Source: Escherichia phage FFH2
Length of the DNA stretch: 64,000 nt
Sequence record: KJ190158
Reading direction: 5' to 3' (one strand)
Position 1 is the stretch's first letter. Each line of letters begins with the position of its first letter. The translations under genes were made by a program, and so were the position numbers. The notes under the pieces were generated by a model. The model was not told the DNA's origin and did not search any database. It saw nothing but the letters and a program-made list of their open reading frames with translations. Shown here piece by piece: positions 10,327-55,538 of this stretch.

Positions 10327-10605
10327 ATGAGCTGTGAAAAATCTTTTTTCTTTATTATTTACGGTAAAGATAACTGCCCACATTGTGTAAGAGCAAAAGA
10401 ATTTGCAGTCAGTAAGGGTCTGCCTTTTGTATATAAGACACTTGGCGAGGGTTACACAAAAGAAGAGCTTATTGAGAAGTGCAGTCCAATCGTACCCAGA
10501 ACGTTGCCGCAGATCTTCTTAGAAAGTAATCTTGAAAGTGTCCATATAGGCGGTGCCGACGATTTCATCTCTTTTGTTAAAAATGGTTTTGGAGAGAAAA
10601 AGTGA
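10327..10605 (+). CDS. glutaredoxin/NrdH-like redoxin
   Basis: CPHC active-site motif in a ~90-aa protein immediately after nrdAB. Confidence 0.7.
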   Translation: MSCEKSFFFIIYGKDNCPHCVRAKEFAVSKGLPFVYKTLGEGYTKEELIEKCSPIVPRTLPQIFLESNLESVHIGGADDFISFVKNGFGEKK

Positions 10606-11462
10606 AAGTTGTAAAACGGGACGGTAGAGAAGAGTTCTATAACGGAATTAAGGTGATCAAGGCGGCAGAGTCCGCCTTACTTGAGTCTGGACATACTGAA
10701 GAAGAAGCTTACCGGATCGCCTGCGCGGTTAATGAAGTTGTTGCTAACAATCTACCAACCGACCAGTGCACGATCTCTGTAAAAAATATCCATATCCTTG
10801 TTGAAGACGCTCTTATGGATATGGGTTTAAAATGTGCAGCCAGAGAATACATCCAGTATAGGCAGACAAGAGATAATAACAGAGAGGCAGGTGGAAAACT
10901 GCTTGCAGATATTAGTGGCTTCTTGGATCGCACTTGTGATGAATTTACAAAAGAAAACGCAAATAAGCCTACCAATCATGTACACACTCATCGTGACCTG
11001 CTTGCAGGCATCCTTAGCAAACACCTTGCATCAACACAGATCCTGACAGACCGTGTCTCAGAAGAGCACAATAAAGGCTTCATCCATGTGCATGATCTTG
11101 ACTACTTGATCAGTCCGTTAACAAACTGTTGTTTGGTAAATTATCCAGATATGTTGGAAAACGGATTCAACATTGGTAACGCCCATGTCAGTAAGCCGAA
11201 GTCAATAGGGGTTGCAACAACAATCCTTAGCCAAATCTCTAGTGCAGTAGCTAGTGCTCAATATGGAGGTCAGACTATGAGCCATATTGATCATTATCTG
11301 GCACAGTATGCTGAAGCGACCTATGAGAAGAACCTTAAATTTTGCCAGGAACATTGGTTGCCAGATGCTGAGACTGTTGCAATGCAAATGACAGATAAAG
11401 ACGTATTTGACAGCATGCAGACTTTGCTCTATCAAATCAATACGTTAACCTCTGTCAACGGT
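10602..11462 (+). CDS. nrdD: anaerobic ribonucleotide reductase NrdD, exon 1
   Basis: N-terminal ATP-cone MKVVKRDGREEFYNGIKV. The frame ends ..TSVNG and is interrupted by an intron. Confidence 0.8.
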
Positions 11463-12260
11463 TAACAAACTGGCCGTTGTAAAACTCTCCTAACCTCATA
11501 AGAGGGGTCGGTAAATCCGGCTAACGGGGAACGCTAAGGCGAAAGCTATGCCAATCCCGTGACTAGTTCTTACAGGAGTTGGAACGGTTGTAACGACTAA
11601 CGAAAGGCAGAGATGCTTGACAAACATTTCTGAACCAAGTAGTGTAGAGGTTAGTTGAAATACTAACTTCGAAATGGAGAGGCTCTATGAAAAAGATCAT
11701 TCTTAATGGTGAAGAATCAAACTATGTGATTGATGAGGTTGGAAACGTATACGGAAAACGTGGAATGCTACACCCAATATTGTGGGGAGGTTATGGAAAA
11801 GGTAACAAGCATGTTAAACGCCGTTATATGTACTCTTTCAACCACAAAGGTAAAAAGATTCGAATCCAAACCTCAAGGATTGTTGCCTTGTATTGTTTGC
11901 CAGATGTCCCAGAAGACCCTGAAAACTGGGAAGTGAATCATAAAGACGGCAATACATTGAATGATCATCCGTCTAACCTAGAGTGGGTTTTGCCGGAAGA
12001 TAATAAGAGACATGCTTTCCGAACAGGGCTTTGCCCAGGCAAGTGCTATAGGAAAGTGCAGGCATACAAAGGGAAAACCTTGGTGGGTGAATATCCTTCA
12101 CTCTATGCCTGTGCAAAAGCCTTAAATTTGAACGTAGGTAACGTTCATAGGGCTATCGAAGGAAATGCCGAAGGTAAGCATCTCACAATAAAGGGTTATT
12201 ATCTTATTGAAGTAGAGTAAGAGATAGTCTGGCCCTGTGGAAACACAGGGGAGGAGACAG
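11463..12260 (+). mobile_element. group I intron interrupting nrdD, carrying an HNH homing-endonuclease ORF (boundaries approximate)
   Basis: Exon 1 ends on U (ggt). Exon 2 resumes in frame at cag act cca (QTPF) after a G. The ~800-nt insert holds a free-standing HNH ORF. This parallels the T4 nrdD intron. Confidence 0.6.
11687..12220 (+). CDS. HNH homing endonuclease (intron-encoded)
   Basis: WEVNHKDGNTLNDHPSNLEWV HNH motif. Paralogous to the ORF at 51736-52242. Confidence 0.7.
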   Translation: MKKIILNGEESNYVIDEVGNVYGKRGMLHPILWGGYGKGNKHVKRRYMYSFNHKGKKIRIQTSRIVALYCLPDVPEDPENWEVNHKDGNTLNDHPSNLEWVLPEDNKRHAFRTGLCPGKCYRKVQAYKGKTLVGEYPSLYACAKALNLNVGNVHRAIEGNAEGKHLTIKGYYLIEVE

Positions 12261-13523
12261 CAGACTCCATTCATCACATTAAGTTTAGGACTGGATACCT
12301 CGGTCTTTGGTAGAATGATTACCAAAAATTACTTGAAAGTCCACAAAATGGGTCTTGGTGAAGAACGTATCACACCTGTGTTCCCTAAAGTGCTGTTCTT
12401 CCTAGAAGAGGGTGTCAACATGAACCCTGGAGATCCTAACTATGATTTGAAAAGATTGGCTCTGGAATGCTCTGCAGAGCGGATTTATCCTGACTTTGTT
12501 TCTGTTCCACTAAATCGTAAAGTGACAGGCTCGACAGATGGTAAAGTAACGAGCATGGGTTGCCGGAGTTTTCTTAGCAAATACAATGACTTGGAAACAG
12601 GCGAGGAGAAATACCTTGGCAGATTTAACTTAGGCGTTGTTAGCCTTAACCTGCCAATGATTGCGGCAAAAGCTAAAACGGAAGGTGTTGATTTCTTTGC
12701 AGTTCTTGACGAATACTTGGATCTTGCATACGAGGCTCACCTTGTAAGGGTTAACCGTCTAAAAGGAACAAAGGCAGGGCAGAACCCTATCATGTGGTGT
12801 GAAGGCGCTCTTGCTCGCCTGGATCCTGAAGAGAGTATTGATAAACTCTTCTATGACGGGTACGCTTCCATCAGTATTGGGTATATTGGTGTGTATGAAA
12901 CCTGTCAGATTTTGGGCAGAGAGGGTGACAAGGCTTTAGCTCTTGGAATCCTTCAGCACATGAAAGATGCTTGTGAGCGATATAAGAAGGAAAGTGGACT
13001 AGCATTTAGCTTGTACGGCACCCCTTCTGAGAGTTTATGCTATAAAGCTGCAACCTGTCTGGATCGTGAATATCCAGAAGTGTTGAAGCACGAGCATGAA
13101 TACCTCACCAACAGTTTCCATCAGCCAGTATGGATCAATAGTTCACCTTTTGATAAGTGGAAGTATGAAGAAGGTTTTGCTATGATCTCTTCTGGTGGCA
13201 ACATTGGATATATAGAGACACCTAACCTGAAAAACAACCTGGATGCTTTAGAGGCTCTTGTTGACTTCGGGTATAAACACATTATGTATTTTGGTATTAA
13301 CCAACCTGTGGATAAATGTCTCAAGTGTGGTTTCTCTGGTGAGTTCAGTGCAACAGCTAAAGGCTTTGTATGCCCAGAGTGTGGAAACCATGAAGAGGGA
13401 ACGATCAGTGTAATTCGACGTGTGTCCGGATACCTTTCCAGTCCTAACTCCCGTCCTTACAATAAAGGTAAGCAAGCGGAAGTTATCGAGCGAGTTAAGC
13501 ACTATGGAAGTTGTAGTTGCTGA
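12261..13523 (+). CDS. nrdD: anaerobic ribonucleotide reductase NrdD, exon 2
   Basis: Has the glycyl-radical motif RVSGYLS and a C-terminal CxxC..CxxC zinc ribbon (CLKCG..CPECG). Confidence 0.8.
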   Translation, partial: QTPFITLSLGLDTSVFGRMITKNYLKVHKMGLGEERITPVFPKVLFFLEEGVNMNPGDPNYDLKRLALECSAERIYPDFVSVPLNRKVTGSTDGKVTSMGCRSFLSKYNDLETGEEKYLGRFNLGVVSLNLPMIAAKAKTEGVDFFAVLDEYLDLAYEAHLVRVNRLKGTKAGQNPIMWCEGALARLDPEESIDKLFYDGYASISIGYIGVYETCQILGREGDKALALGILQHMKDACERYKKESGLAFSLYGTPSESLCYKAATCLDREYPEVLKHEHEYLTNSFHQPVWINSSPFDKWKYEEGFAMISSGGNIGYIETPNLKNNLDALEALVDFGYKHIMYFGINQPVDKCLKCGFSGEFSATAKGFVCPECGNHEEGTISVIRRVSGYLSSPNSRPYNKGKQAEVIERVKHYGSCSC

Positions 13524-13526
13524 TAC

Positions 13527-13556
13527 TTGACAAAAGCTACAAGGATGTGGCATATT
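13527..13556 (+). promoter_or_regulatory. sigma70-like promoter (TTGACA-18-CATATT)
   Basis: Consensus -35 with an acceptable -10, upstream of a small zinc-ribbon ORF and nrdG. Confidence 0.45.
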
Positions 13557-13586
13557 ATTGACACACAGTGAGCTAGGAGGTACAGT

Positions 13587-13703
13587 ATGTCTACAGGTAT
13601 TTATAAAATTTGCAAGTGTGGTTGTCGTTGCAATCTTCGTTGGTGCAAGGCACTGGACGATTTTATTTGGCATTGCCCTAAATGTGATGCGGAGTATCTA
13701 TGA
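13587..13703 (+). CDS. small zinc-ribbon protein (38 aa, CxC..C....CPKC)
   Basis: GGAGG RBS. ATGA overlap with the nrdG start. Below the ORF-track size cutoff. Confidence 0.35.
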   Translation: MSTGIYKICKCGCRCNLRWCKALDDFIWHCPKCDAEYL

Positions 13704-14173
13704 ACATTGCCGGATACACAGAAATATCTTACACCGAAGGACCAGGTATTAGAACTGCCTTATGGGTATCTGGGTGCCCACACGCTTGCCCTGGTTGCTT
13801 TAATCAGGCATTTTGGTCAAAAGATAAGGGGAGAGAGTTTACTGAAGAAGATTTGCAAAAAATCTTGTCAGATTTAGATAACCCGTCTGTGTGCGGTATC
13901 TCTCTGCTGGGTGGAGAACCATTAGCATACTATAATGAGCCAGATATTATTAGCCTGATGGAGAAAATTAAGGAAAAATTTGGTGACAAGAAAACTATTC
14001 TTGTATATACTGGGTTCACATTTGACCATATCTCTAGTGATGTTCTTAAACTGGCTGATATCATCATTGACGGTAAGTATGTAAAAGATTTACCAACCAA
14101 GAAACCGTTCCGAGGTAGCGATAACCAAAGAATGTTTAAAAAAGTAGCAGGCGGTTGGGTTCAGGTAGACTAG
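13700..14173 (+). CDS. nrdG: anaerobic RNR activating enzyme (radical SAM)
   Basis: CPHACPGC 4Fe-4S cluster motif; size and position after nrdD. Confidence 0.85.
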   Translation: MNIAGYTEISYTEGPGIRTALWVSGCPHACPGCFNQAFWSKDKGREFTEEDLQKILSDLDNPSVCGISLLGGEPLAYYNEPDIISLMEKIKEKFGDKKTILVYTGFTFDHISSDVLKLADIIIDGKYVKDLPTKKPFRGSDNQRMFKKVAGGWVQVD

Positions 14174-50856: not shown

Positions 50857-51227
50857 TGATCGGTCTCCTTCTTGTTAAGTCTGAATACTGCAATAATAAC
50901 ATTCCCAAGGTGCAGTGTCAAATCATTTCCAAGATACCACAACATTCCACGGTCATCTTTGATGAAAGGGTAACAATCTGGTGCCTTCCAGACATTGTAC
51001 ACTTTCCCAACCTGAAAGAAATCAGGCCCTGTTGGGATTTTGGTACCAGGCCACACTTGAGATACCTGAACACACTCCACCTGCATAATAACAGGGATAG
51101 TCATAGATGTAAATGTTTTTGTTGGTTCTACTACCATAAAAGTCTCCTCTTTGCTCAACAACACTTCCATGTGTTGATAGTTTACATTAGTGACAATCAC
51201 CCCAATTACGACCACACAAGTATTCAC
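50853..51227 (-). CDS. small protein, family member 3
   Basis: FIKDDRGMLWYLGNDLTLH. Confidence 0.4.
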   Translation of the reverse strand: MNTCVVVIGVIVTNVNYQHMEVLLSKEETFMVVEPTKTFTSMTIPVIMQVECVQVSQVWPGTKIPTGPDFFQVGKVYNVWKAPDCYPFIKDDRGMLWYLGNDLTLHLGNVIIAVFRLNKKETDQ

Positions 51228-51543
51228 CTGTGATCTGGAACGGGACTCCCATCATTTTAGAAGCTTGCCAGAAGCAATGTACCACCATTTCGCCCACAGG
51301 ACTCCAGATAAGTTCAAGCTTTCCGTCATCGTTCAAGATAGGATCGTACACCGTGTTTCCGTCTCTGTCAACCACTTCGTTTCCGTCCTCATCCTTGCGT
51401 GCCTTTTTGTACTTATGACCGTCGAACACATGAAGTTTGGCCTCCTGCTCTGCCTTAAATGCTTCCAGTTCTTCGATTGTGTCGAAGGTGTACACAGTCT
51501 TATACTTCGGTGTGTCAGGGACTTGAAGCTGATATTCATCCAT
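51187..51543 (-). CDS. hypothetical protein (118 aa)
   Basis: ORF. Confidence 0.4.
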   Translation of the reverse strand: MDEYQLQVPDTPKYKTVYTFDTIEELEAFKAEQEAKLHVFDGHKYKKARKDEDGNEVVDRDGNTVYDPILNDDGKLELIWSPVGEMVVHCFWQASKMMGVPFQITGEYLCGRNWGDCH

Positions 51544-51735
51544 CTGTTCAGGTAGGTCGTTAAGCTACCCCGCACCATTACGTGCATAGCCATACAGTTT
51601 CCTGTATGGATCGGACTACCTCACTGCCTTGGTAACAAGGCACCTCCCATTTCGACCGCACTTGCTGGCCTACTCTACTCGCTTCTTCACACCAACCTAT
51701 GTTGGAGCTATGCTTTCGATAGTCTCTGAACGTTA

Positions 51736-52242
51736 CTACCAGGTGTAGTTTTTAGAGATATGTTTCCACTGTCTTCTTTGCTTTATAGCCCTGACGGTCT
51801 CATAAGGATATCCAAGATCCCTAATCTCGCATTGTCGTAGACCACTCTGCAACAGTTCGCAAATCTCTATTACCTCATCTTCTGTCAGCACAGCGTTAGC
51901 ATTATACTCACCAACTGGCCTTACTCTGAGGTCATTATCATAGGCGTGCTTGATATTTCCACCAGGGGTGGTCCATTCTAGGTTCCAGTATGCATTGTTG
52001 TACTTATTCCCATCCTTATGGTTCACCCATGTGAGTCTTTCAGGATCTGGGTTTGATACAAAGCATTCAGCAACCAGGTGGTGGACACCTTTTGTGCACT
52101 GCTTCCCCTCGATTAGCATGGTTACGCAAAGGTAACCTCTACCATTATCAAAACAAAACATTGTTGTATGATCACGTTTCGATAAAGGTATTGTTCCATC
52201 ATCAAACACGGTATACCCGTGATAATCAGCTGTTCTAGCCAT
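51736..52242 (-). CDS. HNH homing endonuclease (free-standing)
   Basis: WVNHKDGNKYNNAYWNLEW HNH motif. Paralogous to the nrdD intron HEG. Lies immediately downstream of the DNA polymerase gene. Confidence 0.65.
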   Translation of the reverse strand: MARTADYHGYTVFDDGTIPLSKRDHTTMFCFDNGRGYLCVTMLIEGKQCTKGVHHLVAECFVSNPDPERLTWVNHKDGNKYNNAYWNLEWTTPGGNIKHAYDNDLRVRPVGEYNANAVLTEDEVIEICELLQSGLRQCEIRDLGYPYETVRAIKQRRQWKHISKNYTW

Positions 52243-52377
52243 TTTAACTACACCCCTTTAGTCTTCGCTGCGGATTAGCATATTGAGCTTTTACCATACT
52301 CAGGTGTAAAAGTCAACTTAGCTTCCCCGTCAATTAAAGAGGTTATTCGACATAGATTACTCTATGAAGCCACAATG

Positions 52378-54807
52378 TTATTTATGGTAATAAATAATAC
52401 GACGAACACCTTCATCGTACCACCCACGCTTCACCATTTGGTGGTGCATGAGTATCCCAACTAAGTCACACAACGATGCACCACCATTTTGTTGGTATGC
52501 ATTAAGTAAAGAGTGTTTAGATCGGGTCCAGATGGCATGACCATCAAAAGAGTAGATAAACTTCTTACCCGTTGCTTCCCAGAATTTCTCCAGATCCTCT
52601 TTACGGCCCTTAAGACCAGGGTTGGCATCCCAAAGCGCATCGATTACCCTTTGTCCCAACTCTGGAGAGATGTCCAGCATATCTGCAACTTTATCTTTTT
52701 GTGCCCCGTACATAACCCCATACGTGATAGGTTTACCGTCGTTACGGGACACCTCTCTGCCTGCTACTTTTGTATATGCCTCAGCATTGTTTTGGTGTGC
52801 GTCTCCGTTACTTACAACATCATAATACAAGCCGTTGTCGAACTCAAAGGCACCCCAAGCCCCGATAAGCTGCTCTAAGTTGGACCCGTCAATACCGATC
52901 TCAAAGTATCCAGGAGGAACACCCCACAGACTACGCATCTCTTTACCCATAACCACTTTAGGAGATGGTTTAGGCATGTTTGCACAAATACTGTGTTTCT
53001 GTCTGGAAGTGTTTGTTAATCCAGAGCTTTTAGCAGGAAGCTTATGGTCAATCTTCAAACGTGGGTGATTAAGAAGACCAGTGTCAACCTTATCCTCCTT
53101 GATTGGATCAAGTACCGATCTGCGGTTTCGCAATGATAACCATAAGACGATATCTTTAGCCATCTCTCCGTTCAATTTTTCAAGATTCGGACACAGGTGT
53201 CCAAACGTATCTTTCAGTTGCGGAGAAGTAATAAGTGCCCTAGCTTTTCTACGTATTTTCCCGAATACTTCCTTTTTAATCCTTTCGGAGTTAGGAAAGC
53301 TTCGGAACTTGTGCACTGTTGTCTGAAACTTAGCATCAGTTTTGTTCCAGAAGTTGATAATTAGGTCACAATACTCTGACTCTAAAAGCTCGTCCATGTA
53401 TGCATATACTCGTGCATCAACATCTGCATCAGGTAGAGCTTTCTTCTTGCTGTCTTTAGTTACATCCTTAGTTCTCCACATTGTCGGAAGCCAACCAGCA
53501 CTGATCAGGTATCGCTTAATGTCGTCCTGATTGCTGATTTTCATAGGTATCTTGCAGTCAGGCATTCGCTTCTGCTGCAGATCGCTTATTGCCTGATCCA
53601 TCAGCTCTTTAGGCAAAGGTTGTGGTGTGGAGGTGCCCTTAATATAGCCTCTCAAGAAATCAGCCATCTTATCGTGGTCTTTGCAGCCCATCTCTTCACA
53701 CCATTTTATCCCCATTTTACTGACATCTCCTGTGGAGGTAAATGCTCGCTTAGGTGGGGCTTTGAACTCTAAAGCGCTCATGTCTACAGGATAGCCAAGC
53801 TTATCTTTTAACCATTTCCAACCATTATTGGAGATTGTCCCATCTTGGTTAAACGGCTTTTCAGGGAACTTGGGCCGCTGAGACATTGACAGCTCTTTTA
53901 AAGGTAGTTGTGGTTCAACACGATCAGCTATTTCTTTCATCCACGCATCGCAACGGTCACGTAAAGCAATAGCCCCGTCTATGTCGAAATACACACCCTG
54001 ACGGGCCTGCAGCTCCATCAGGAAGTGCTGCAGCATGCCTCGACGTAGTGCGTTCTTCCAGGTGATCTTCTTGAACCCTTTCGGCTTCTCTTTGGCTGGA
54101 TCGTACATAAAGTTCTGCATGTCAGATTTGCCGTAGAATACACCTTTTGATTCCGCTACCAGCTCTTTCCAGAGCAGCTCCTGGATGATAACGTCCTCGA
54201 ATACACGATCCACATACTTCCACAACGGAAGATCGCGCCAGTCATCAATTTGAACTTTCTGGTTACCAAGGGCGTAGCCCCATGCCATAAGGCCGTGAGG
54301 ACCAACAGGCTGCATTTTCTTAGTAACCGGGTTGAATACAGAGTCCGGACAACCTTTTGGTAAAGGGCGATCAGGCCACAAGATTCGGCTCATCGCCAAC
54401 GTATCAAACAGGTTAACCTGGTGGTCGTTGATAGTCCCCATACATTTAGGATCACGGAACATATCAAAATGAATACCGGATAATCTCTCCATCAGCATAA
54501 AGTCATAACTGTAGCAGTTATGGCAGTTCAAAGCTGTTGGTGACCAGTCGGAATTGCCTGTAAGCCAACCCTCCAACTCCGAAAAATCTGCTATGCGAAC
54601 TTCAAAATCCTTATAAAGAGTTTTCTTTGCCAGAATAAAGTTCTTAGCCTTCTCTATATCCTCCTCGGAGTAGTGTGTGCGGTCATTTAGAGGAAGGAAC
54701 AGCATAAAACGGTTCTTATTCAGCTCTTTAAACAGGCCGCAATGATAATAAAGATCTGGGTCTTCCAAAAGCCCTGAGGCCTCCAGATCGAAGCACCAAT
54801 TACTCAT
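52378..54807 (-). CDS. family A DNA polymerase, T7 gp5-like
   Basis: Exo I FDLEASGL; HCGLF, AWGYALG, AGWLPT, GIDGSNLEQL...FEFDNG (motif A) and KPITYGVMYGAQ (motif B) parallel T7 gp5 blocks; 809 aa. Confidence 0.85.
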   Translation of the reverse strand: MSNWCFDLEASGLLEDPDLYYHCGLFKELNKNRFMLFLPLNDRTHYSEEDIEKAKNFILAKKTLYKDFEVRIADFSELEGWLTGNSDWSPTALNCHNCYSYDFMLMERLSGIHFDMFRDPKCMGTINDHQVNLFDTLAMSRILWPDRPLPKGCPDSVFNPVTKKMQPVGPHGLMAWGYALGNQKVQIDDWRDLPLWKYVDRVFEDVIIQELLWKELVAESKGVFYGKSDMQNFMYDPAKEKPKGFKKITWKNALRRGMLQHFLMELQARQGVYFDIDGAIALRDRCDAWMKEIADRVEPQLPLKELSMSQRPKFPEKPFNQDGTISNNGWKWLKDKLGYPVDMSALEFKAPPKRAFTSTGDVSKMGIKWCEEMGCKDHDKMADFLRGYIKGTSTPQPLPKELMDQAISDLQQKRMPDCKIPMKISNQDDIKRYLISAGWLPTMWRTKDVTKDSKKKALPDADVDARVYAYMDELLESEYCDLIINFWNKTDAKFQTTVHKFRSFPNSERIKKEVFGKIRRKARALITSPQLKDTFGHLCPNLEKLNGEMAKDIVLWLSLRNRRSVLDPIKEDKVDTGLLNHPRLKIDHKLPAKSSGLTNTSRQKHSICANMPKPSPKVVMGKEMRSLWGVPPGYFEIGIDGSNLEQLIGAWGAFEFDNGLYYDVVSNGDAHQNNAEAYTKVAGREVSRNDGKPITYGVMYGAQKDKVADMLDISPELGQRVIDALWDANPGLKGRKEDLEKFWEATGKKFIYSFDGHAIWTRSKHSLLNAYQQNGGASLCDLVGILMHHQMVKRGWYDEGVRRIIYYHK

Positions 54808-55538
54808 ACTGTCTCCTCCTGTGTCTTCTCAGCATTCTTTCTTGCAGCTATTGCATCGTCCCTGTTCTTGAAATACCCAAGGCATTTCCTTTTACCATCT
54901 ACATGAATTCTGGCTACCCATCTTTCATGGGTTTTATCCCAATTCACCCCTGAGCAACCGCTGGTGTTATTATACTGCACGGCTCTTCCACTCTTGTGCG
55001 AAAAACCATTATCTTCGAAGAACTTTCTTGCCCACTCTGCCTCTTCAAAAGTTCTGTACTGGCCTAGCCAGACCCTTTCACCTACAGAGTCTGTGCCTTG
55101 AGCTACCCATGCCCCTCTTTCTTCAGAATAGTGCACCCCGACCCTGCCAGATTTGTTGTTGCTACGAGGTATCTTGCAACTTTTCTTTTTGTTATCTGTA
55201 GGTTCGAGTAGTTGCAAATTATGAATACTGTTGTCAGCCACACCACCTGTTTCCCTTATCTCCTTGATGTGGTCAACCTCATACCCTTCCGGTACAGGAC
55301 CGTTAAACATTTCCCAGATTATAACGTGGGCACCTTTAGTGCAATGCTTTCCTAGACTAACCACAGGCCTGCCATCAGCATCTTGCCCCTTGTCAGCTCT
55401 GGAGCCTGCTGAAGTTTTAACATATCCTACACCGCTGCCTGCCAGAATGTCTATCTTCCAAAAAAGATTTTGACCGTCATACTCCAATATTTCTGACCAC
55501 AAGTGATTAGCTACACAGTGATCTCTGAACTCGTTCAT
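54804..55538 (-). CDS. HNH homing endonuclease with AP2-like DNA-binding repeats
   Basis: EVDHIKEIRETGG HNH core plus two RVGVHY../GVNWDKTHERWVARIHV AP2-type repeats. Inserted between the polymerase and primase-helicase genes. Confidence 0.65.
   Translation of the reverse strand: MNEFRDHCVANHLWSEILEYDGQNLFWKIDILAGSGVGYVKTSAGSRADKGQDADGRPVVSLGKHCTKGAHVIIWEMFNGPVPEGYEVDHIKEIRETGGVADNSIHNLQLLEPTDNKKKSCKIPRSNNKSGRVGVHYSEERGAWVAQGTDSVGERVWLGQYRTFEEAEWARKFFEDNGFSHKSGRAVQYNNTSGCSGVNWDKTHERWVARIHVDGKRKCLGYFKNRDDAIAARKNAEKTQEETV

Follow-up and report, generated by a model that had tools for sequence, protein, structure and literature searches.

A predicted mobile group I intron with an HNH endonuclease gene in nrdD of Escherichia phage FFH2

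The anaerobic ribonucleotide reductase gene nrdD is interrupted in the 64,000-nucleotide (nt) stretch of Escherichia phage FFH2 (KJ190158) that was analysed here, i.e., the window. The interruption is read as a mobile phage group I intron of the IA2 type that separates codons G287 and Q288 of nrdD, the phage being a Vequintavirus (rV5-like) coliphage, and a probability of about 0.88 is given to this reading. The original prediction, made from the sequence alone, had described the insert as an approximately 0.8-kb group I intron that carries an HNH open reading frame (ORF). This description is supported: the excision is precise, the P1 helix has a U•G pair, the last base is G, the core covaries, and Rfam gives a match, below its cutoff, with an E-value of 7e-5.

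Interruption of nrdD and intron boundaries

NrdB, glutaredoxin, NrdD in two pieces, and NrdG are encoded within the region 9.2-14.2 kb. The DNA at 10602-13523 is 95-98% identical to Vequintavirus (rV5-like) coliphages, e.g., WalterGehring, nomo, slur16, and FV3. The ORF at 10602-11465 ends in ...TSVNG followed by TAA, and position 11462 is the last base of its final sense codon, GGT. In-frame reading restarts at 12261 (CAG ACT CCA TTC, i.e., QTPF), immediately past G12260. The exons share one frame, and the insert between them measures 798 nt (3 x 266). The two ends that had been predicted, i.e., a stop after ...TSVNG with the ggt codon ending at 11462, and an in-frame restart at QTPFITL (12261) after a G, were correct to the base. 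The features of the locus are collected in Table 1.

In Pfam search, exon 1 showed the ATP-cone at residues 1-91 and positions 1-154 of the NRDD profile, and exon 2 showed positions 156-562 of the same profile and the glycine-radical domain. Because profile positions 154 and 156 meet at the junction, the two halves of nrdD abut. The ATP-cone match in exon 1 supports its GTG start, and nrdD of rV5 is annotated with the same start.

The exons were spliced in silico, and 240 nt around the junction gave a single ungapped match, with 98-99% identity, to nrdD genes without the interruption in rV5, O157 typing phage 14, and further phages. Precise excision restores the allele of the intron-less relatives, which was one of the comparisons proposed with the prediction. 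The rV5 nrdD coding sequence (CDS) has 2124 nt, i.e., 861 + 1263 for exon 1 and exon 2. The spliced NrdD has 707 amino acids, of which 698 are identical to the uninterrupted NrdD of rV5 with 0 gaps, and the register of the protein across the junction is intact. The intron boundaries cannot slide because the flanking bases differ (T/T...G/C here versus G/C in the intron-less alleles; slashes mark the junctions). The interruption is not a chance break of an ORF.

Group I introns are expected to have a U•G pair in P1 at the 5' splice site and a terminal G at the 3' splice site, and both are present here. The wobble pair at the splice site is U11462•G11473. P1 was recovered by RNAalifold in eight related introns, with the U•G invariant and two adjacent pairs covarying, and the Rfam alignment of an ORF-less relative puts P1 at the same position. 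The last intron base, G12260, stands directly before CAG ACU CCA, and this boundary is fixed by the intron-less alleles. A short P10 is possible between CUG (11470-11472) and the first bases of exon 2, CAG.

One further pairing was seen near the 3' splice site. The GGAG of the 3' tail (12252-12255) can pair with CUCC at +5 to +8 of exon 2 (12265-12268). In the ORF-less variant, both sides of this pairing are changed (GGGG/CCCC), and the change in the exon is synonymous. The pairing may be a helix across the 3' splice site, or a coincidence.

The proposed course of events is as follows. The nrdD pre-mRNA would be transcribed through the intron, and ribosomes on exon 1 would be halted by UAA, the first three bases of the intron. 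The RNA would fold to a group I core comprising P1 (U11462•G11473), the P3/P7 pseudoknot, P4-P6, P7.1/P7.2, P8, and P9. Free guanosine would attack after U11462, and the 3'-OH of exon 1 would then attack after G12260. Ligation would give ...GUCAACGGU-CAGACUCC... and the 707-amino-acid NrdD, and the predicted junction of the ligated exons reads ...GUCAACGGU/CAGACUCCAUUC.... In mixed infections, the HNH endonuclease encoded in the P8 loop would introduce a nick or a break into intron-less nrdD alleles close to the site of insertion. Repair by recombination would then transfer the intron along with adjacent exon bases, i.e., homing with co-conversion.

Predicted ribozyme core and intron-encoded endonuclease

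A covariance-model search for group I introns had been proposed with the prediction, and it gave significant matches. The Rfam model RF00028 aligned over its full length to the window intron with 27.7 bits (E = 7e-5) and to the ORF-less 257-nt relative with 29.8 bits (E = 6e-6), both below the gathering score. At gathering thresholds, the Rfam scan of the whole window returned no matches, and at E <= 0.05 it returned two introns only, i.e., those in nrdD and in the DNA polymerase gene. As controls on RF00028, the proven T4 nrdD intron scored 105 bits and a T4-type td intron scored 42.7 bits. The latter is also below the cutoff. Because the td-type intron fails too, the gathering threshold of RF00028 would say little about phage IA2 introns that contain an ORF. 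The R element GUAACGACUA and the S element AAGAGAUAGUCU align with the Rfam consensus, and the posterior probability of the alignment is high over AAGAGAUAGUCUGG-CCCUGUGGAAACACAGGG in the region 12225..12260. In a first permissive alignment, the model's 5' half fell within the HNH ORF. This placement was rejected; the ORF-less relative and the comparative data place the 5' half, from P1 to P7, at 11456-11599.

For the comparative data, IMG/VR was scanned with the P4-P5-P4' signature AACGGGGAAC...CAATCCCGTG, and 47 loci were found. These loci include T4 td-type introns and a subfamily with the same 5' layout as the nrdD intron. RNAalifold was given the 5' halves of eight introns and no input structure. 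It recovered P1, the hairpin before J3/4, P4, P5, and P5a, and 7 of the 23 pairs were compensatory. For the long-range helices, strands were assigned by hand in the eight introns, concatenated to equal length, and scored as a gapless alignment. Across 11 helices, including the P3/P7 pseudoknot, 99.5% of the cells were paired, versus 37-46% when the partners were slid by 1-3 columns. Both-sided changes were found in 35 of 48 pairs, and the observed values were reached in 0 of 500 shuffles. The concatenated strands replaced a global MAFFT alignment of five introns, in which P7.1-P8 were misaligned.

All six pairs of P3 covary across the eight introns, i.e., CUCUCC/GGAGAG here, and CUCUGC/GCAGGG, ACGGUG/CGCCGU, UACCUU/AGGGUA, AUAUCU/GGAUAU, and ACACCC/GGGUGU elsewhere. 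Pairing the P3 3' strand to the second hairpin's 3' strand was tried and set aside; it works only in locus L009, and the distal strand covaries in all eight introns. In P7, the pair next to the bulge occurs as A-U, G-C, or U-A. Minimum free energy (MFE) folding was performed without constraints on the 257-nt relative and on the window ribozyme, with the ORF loop of the latter swapped for 9 nt. The folds gave P3, both hairpins, P4-P6, P7.1, P7.2, P8, and P9, and the z-scores were -5.1 for the window ribozyme and -3.4 for the relative.

The intron is assigned to the IA2 type because P7.1 and P7.2 lie between the 5' strand of P7 and the 3' strand of P3, and because P4/P5 is td-like. Peripheral P7.1/P7.2 elements are said to define the IA subgroup in the Michel and Westhof classification. 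The P4/P5 signature ACGGGGAAC...CAAUCCCGUG also occurs in the T4 td intron (L037 and L046, two loci of T4 td type). Subtype IA2 accounts for over half of the group I introns of viruses (PMC11835236). P2 is absent from the nrdD intron, and P7.1 has 44 nt here versus 10 nt in the ORF-less form. The two hairpins between the 5' strand of P3 and J3/4 are common to a subfamily of IMG/VR introns, and this sub-lineage is widespread in viral metagenomes (L009, L011, L013, L014, L020, L038, and others). Published names for the extra hairpins ('P3.1', 'P3.2') were sought in the literature, and nothing relevant was found.

The intron ORF encodes an HNH endonuclease of the I-HmuI kind. The ORF had been predicted at 11687-12220, and it is intact, with a Pfam HNH_3 match of 29.3 bits above the cutoff of 24.8. 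It matched phrog_59 with 1.5e-26 and I-HmuI (PDB 1U3E) with E = 2.7e-4; in the latter, residues 8-160 aligned with residues 8-159 and the alignment continued through the NUMOD region. The H-N-H catalytic segment VNHKDGNTLNDHPSNLEWV aligns with VDHKDGNKDNNLSTNLRWV of I-HmuI.

The entire ORF sits in the P8 loop. The 5' strand of P8, CUCUAU, includes the AU of the ORF's AUG, and its 3' strand, GUAGAG, forms the last two sense codons. The 3' strand of P3, GGAGAG, is at the same time the ORF's Shine-Dalgarno sequence, with a spacing of 5 nt to the AUG downstream (7 nt if counted from the GGAG core). From this overlap we infer that core folding and endonuclease translation compete. Because the Shine-Dalgarno sequence is in the P3 3' strand and the AUG is in P8, ribozyme folding and translation would be mutually exclusive on any one RNA molecule. 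If this is true, each transcript serves the expression of either the host gene or the mobility gene. Two features may be undescribed, i.e., a P2-less sub-lineage of phage IA2 introns with two covarying hairpins between P3 and J3/4, and a ribosome binding site in the P3 3' strand with the AUG in P8 as a switch between host gene and mobility gene expression. This joint proposal is tentative, and on balance it is rather doubtful.

An extra hairpin in the enlarged P7.1 holds a perfect TTGACA at about 11619. The scan for an internal sigma-70-type promoter of the HNH gene found no qualifying promoter or -10 element inside the intron.

Several points weigh against the proposed intron. The RF00028 score of 27.7 bits is below the gathering score of 50. 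The helix strands were picked by eye, which inflates the paired fraction; the RNAalifold and MFE folds reduce this concern and do not remove it, and the covariation of the hand-assigned helices is taken as supportive, not independent, evidence. In the pseudoknot, P7 has one covarying pair and five invariant pairs. P10 has just 3 base pairs (bp). The two hairpins between P3 and J3/4 are not known from the textbook IA2 layout. The match of the intron ORF to PF22083 (I-HmuI NUMOD-like) reaches 18.4 bits, below the cutoff of 27. Catalysis of splicing by the nrdD intron is predicted from sequence comparison, and so are the activity of the endonuclease, its target, and homing.

Table 1. Predicted features of the nrdD and DNA polymerase loci in the window
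Feature	Position	Strand	Remarks
nrdD exon 1	10602..11462	+	GTG start overlaps the glutaredoxin stop codon; 287 codons; ATP-cone and N-terminal part of NrdD
nrdD exon 2	12261..13523	+	QTPFITL... to the glycine-radical domain; stop 13521-13523
Group I intron, IA2-type	11463..12260	+	798 nt, phase 0; starts with in-frame UAA (11463-11465), ends with omega-G G12260
P1	11456-11462 / 11473-11479	+	5' exon CAACGGU with internal guide GCCGUUG, 7 bp
P3	11485-11490 (CUCUCC) / 11676-11681 (GGAGAG)	+	Covariation of 6 pairs, MFE folds
Two hairpins between P3 5' strand and J3/4	11494-11505; 11507-11521	+	CCUC-AUAA-GAGG; GUCGG-UAAAU-CCGGC; covariation, MFE
P4 (ACGGGG/UCCCGU) enclosing P5/P5a	11524..11560	+	P4 = 11524-29 / 11555-60
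P5/P5a (GC..GC-GAAA-GC..GC)	11533-51	+	
P6/P6a hairpin	11562..11588	+	Closing pairs covary, MFE folds
P7	11592-11599 / 12225-12230	+	R element AACGACUA with bulged C; S element UAGUCU
P7.1	11600-11643	+	Enlarged relative to the ORF-less form; covariation, MFE
P7.2	11647-11670	+	Covariation, MFE
P8	11683-11688 (CUCUAU) / 12212-12217 (GUAGAG)	+	Covariation, MFE
P9	12233-12250	+	CCCUGUG-GAAA-CACAGGG; covariation
3' tail	ends at omega-G 12260	+	GAGGAGACAG
Intron ORF	11687..12220	+	177-amino-acid I-HmuI-like HNH endonuclease; stop UAA 12218-12220; intact
Second group I intron	51541..52383	-	843 nt in the DNA polymerase gene; exons 52384-54807 and 51187-51540
Free-standing HNH with AP2-type repeats	54804-55538	-	HNH_3 2e-11; immediately upstream of the polymerase gene; stop overlaps the polymerase start (ATGA)

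Distribution, mobility, and alternative explanations

The distribution of the intron was searched in INPHARED. The 798-nt-type intron was found in 26 records with 97-99.5% identity, and a 257-nt ORF-less intron was found at the identical site in 14 records. The short form is approximately 86% identical in the shared core, and a short P8 hairpin replaces the ORF. The remaining Vequintavirus records, e.g., rV5, are empty at this site. Empty, ORF-less, and ORF-bearing states at one site are the pattern expected of a mobile intron.

The exon bases at the site differ with the state. Intron-bearing alleles read GGU/CAG in the 798-nt form or GGU/CAA in the 257-nt form. All five sampled empty alleles (L004, L053-L056) read GGG/CAA, i.e., they differ at -1 (11462) and +3 (12263). 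These differences fit a requirement for the U•G pair together with co-conversion of the flanks, as would occur during homing. The current empty nrdD sites could be poor targets of the endonuclease.

An intron that splices and is immobile would explain part of these data. The HNH protein would be inactive or repurposed, or the circulating empty alleles (GGG/CAA) would not be substrates, and the intron would be maintained by vertical descent and ordinary recombination. The five empty alleles that differ at -1 and +3 could be resistant targets, but the same differences are also expected from co-conversion. The ORF-less form is common (14 records), so the endonuclease gene is dispensable, and the match of the C-terminal DNA-binding domain is sub-threshold. 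However, 26 records have the ORF intact with 97-99.5% conservation, and its H-N-H catalytic segment is preserved in comparison with I-HmuI. The intron occurs patchily among phages with about 95-98% identity elsewhere, which agrees with recent transfer. Immobility is considered clearly unlikely. Absence of splicing is less probable again. The NrdA of Aeromonas phage Aeh1 is reportedly split by mobE, and on this model an endonuclease cassette would divide nrdD into halves that are translated separately and then assemble. Two separate nrdD CDSs in several GenBank records and a non-splicing HNH insertion reported in CB7 (PMC7344957) point in this direction, and an ORF that starts with a GTG at 12237 continues into exon 2. 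However, no other in-frame start precedes exon 2, and this GTG is located within the stem of P9, has no Shine-Dalgarno sequence, and would give the protein a foreign N-terminus. A complete, covarying group I core is present in the insert, and the U•G and omega-G rules are followed exactly. A 257-nt ORF-less version kept at the same site would make no sense for a mere endonuclease cassette. A split gene is thus regarded as very improbable.

The idea that nrdD is a pseudogene, inactivated by selfish DNA in a phage that relies on the class I reductase (nrdAB), is hardly credible. It draws on nrdAB and glutaredoxin immediately upstream and on related genera of which some are without nrdDG (PMC7344957). 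Yet both exons are free of stops and frameshifts, and the protein is 98.7% identical to the uninterrupted homologue. The activase gene nrdG is intact downstream, and the same arrangement is kept in 26 independent isolates. The mobile group I intron is therefore preferred over these explanations.

The mobile intron in nrdD has practical consequences. In annotation, nrdD should be one joined 707-codon gene, not two fragments as in many GenBank relatives. The empty, ORF-less, and endonuclease-bearing alleles form a natural series at one site among phages otherwise about 95-98% identical, and the flanking bases are diagnostic. The locus would be convenient for studying homing, gain and loss of the endonuclease, and co-conversion in easily grown coliphages.

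Further insertions were observed in and around nrdD of relatives. JEP1 (MT740314, L003 3468-4217), Campylobacter phage C2, and phita32 have an additional HNH gene in an extra insertion of approximately 0.75 kb at a more downstream position in nrdD. Their nrdD is in three pieces, and this insertion is absent from the window. The stretch from nrdD to nrdG varies within the genus: a further putative homing endonuclease is found there in WalterGehring (L001 4459-5451), and different small ORFs in rV5 (L004 2880-3240). In the window, nrdD runs almost directly into nrdG (13700-14173), with two promoter-like sites at 13527-13586. Approximately 19 INPHARED records (MG0656xx) are named Campylobacter phage (C2, A135, A147, and others), and they are 94-98% identical to Escherichia coli Vequintavirus over nrdD and the polymerase gene. 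This similarity suggests mislabelled hosts or contaminating coliphages in the dataset.

Predicted DNA polymerase intron and comparison with known systems

Phage ribonucleotide reductase and DNA polymerase genes are classic targets of group I introns. In the window, the DNA polymerase ORF 52378-54807 (minus strand) ends in ...RRIIYYHK*, and the ORF 51187-51543 (minus strand) begins with MDEYQLQVP. Removal of 52383-51541, with a U before and a G at the end, gives ...YYH/DEYQLQVP, i.e., motif C of the A family polymerase, in a 925-amino-acid protein. RF00028 matched exactly at the exon break with 26.8 bits (E = 1.4e-4). The Pfam DNA_pol_A match crosses the junction and passes the cutoff only in the spliced protein (34.5 versus 27.9 bits). 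In relatives, the locus spans 1601 nt, 1034 nt when the intron has about 276 nt and no ORF (as in rV5, among others), or 758 nt when empty. The DNA polymerase should be annotated as one 925-codon gene joined across the 843-nt intron.

The original prediction had two HNH genes flanking the DNA polymerase gene, the second with AP2 repeats. The HNH gene at 54804-55538 does stand beside the polymerase gene (HNH_3 2e-11), and the one at 51736-52242 lies instead inside the 843-nt intron that splits motif C. The AP2 match in the former is 31 bits, just under the Pfam cutoff of 33.3. The ORF 51736-52242 (phrog_59, 1.5e-36) is upstream of the R element of the polymerase intron and is probably located in its P6 loop. 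A free-standing, non-spliced HNH gene at the polymerase gene's 5' end in Pectobacterium phage CB7 (PMC7344957) is analogous in position to the gene at 54804-55538.

The same nrdD intron is present at the same site in WalterGehring (MZ501111), FV3 (NC_019517), slur16, and nomo with 97-99.5% identity, and the ORF-less form is present in AlexBoehm (MZ501048). In the BASEL GenBank records, the nrdD CDS is joined from two pieces and has a 'putative homing endonuclease' inside, and the lengths fit introns of 797 and 257 nt. The BASEL paper set the intron boundaries by comparative genomics. Many other GenBank records of relatives annotate two separate nrdD CDSs. The intron is thus already known from annotation of near-identical phage genomes as an ordinary mobile element, and the knowledge of group I introns is unchanged by this finding. 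In the searchable literature, no paper was found on the structure, subgroup, or splicing of an nrdD intron in rV5, FV3, or Vequintavirus.

Within the subfamily Vequintavirinae, CB7 and rV5 also have HNH genes in introns of essential genes. In CB7, HNH introns are in the terminase, DNA polymerase, nrdA, and nrdB genes, and splicing was shown by reverse transcription PCR (PMC7344957). The nrdD of CB7 (Certrevirus) is uninterrupted, and no nrdD intron was reported for it (PMC7344957). The rV5 paper reports terminase introns only, with no nrdD intron (PMC3606486).

A known counterpart of the endonuclease is I-HmuI of the DNA polymerase intron of the Bacillus phage SPO1 (PDB 1U3E). Both are HNH proteins of about 175 amino acids that align end to end with the catalytic ..HKDGN...N.L.W.. 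conserved, and both belong to a phage group I intron within an essential DNA-metabolism gene. However, the host gene and the host phylum are different, and the sequence identity is low. I-HmuI nicks DNA.

The T4 nrdD (sunY) intron with I-TevII interrupts the same host gene. It is in the same conserved segment (...NTL.S.NGQTPF...), is of IA type, and carries a homing endonuclease ORF. As here, P2 is absent, and the intron begins with U/UAAC, giving an in-frame stop at its start. Unlike the window intron, it has 1033 nt rather than 798 nt, scores 105 bits rather than 27.7 bits with RF00028, and has the P1 AUGAGU/GCUCAU. I-TevII is annotated as GIY-YIG, whereas the window ORF encodes an HNH protein. 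The ORF of the T4 intron is in the 3' peripheral region (P9.1), and the ORF here is in L8. By blastn, no DNA similarity was found between the two introns, with T4 absent from the matches. The T4 intron splices after nt 538, which falls in the Y codon of ...QAYE-Y-EVNTL, and this position is 32 nt upstream of the site found here. Because the site is 32 nt downstream of that of T4, the window intron would be a separate insertion from outside the T4 lineage that invaded this conserved part of NrdD independently.

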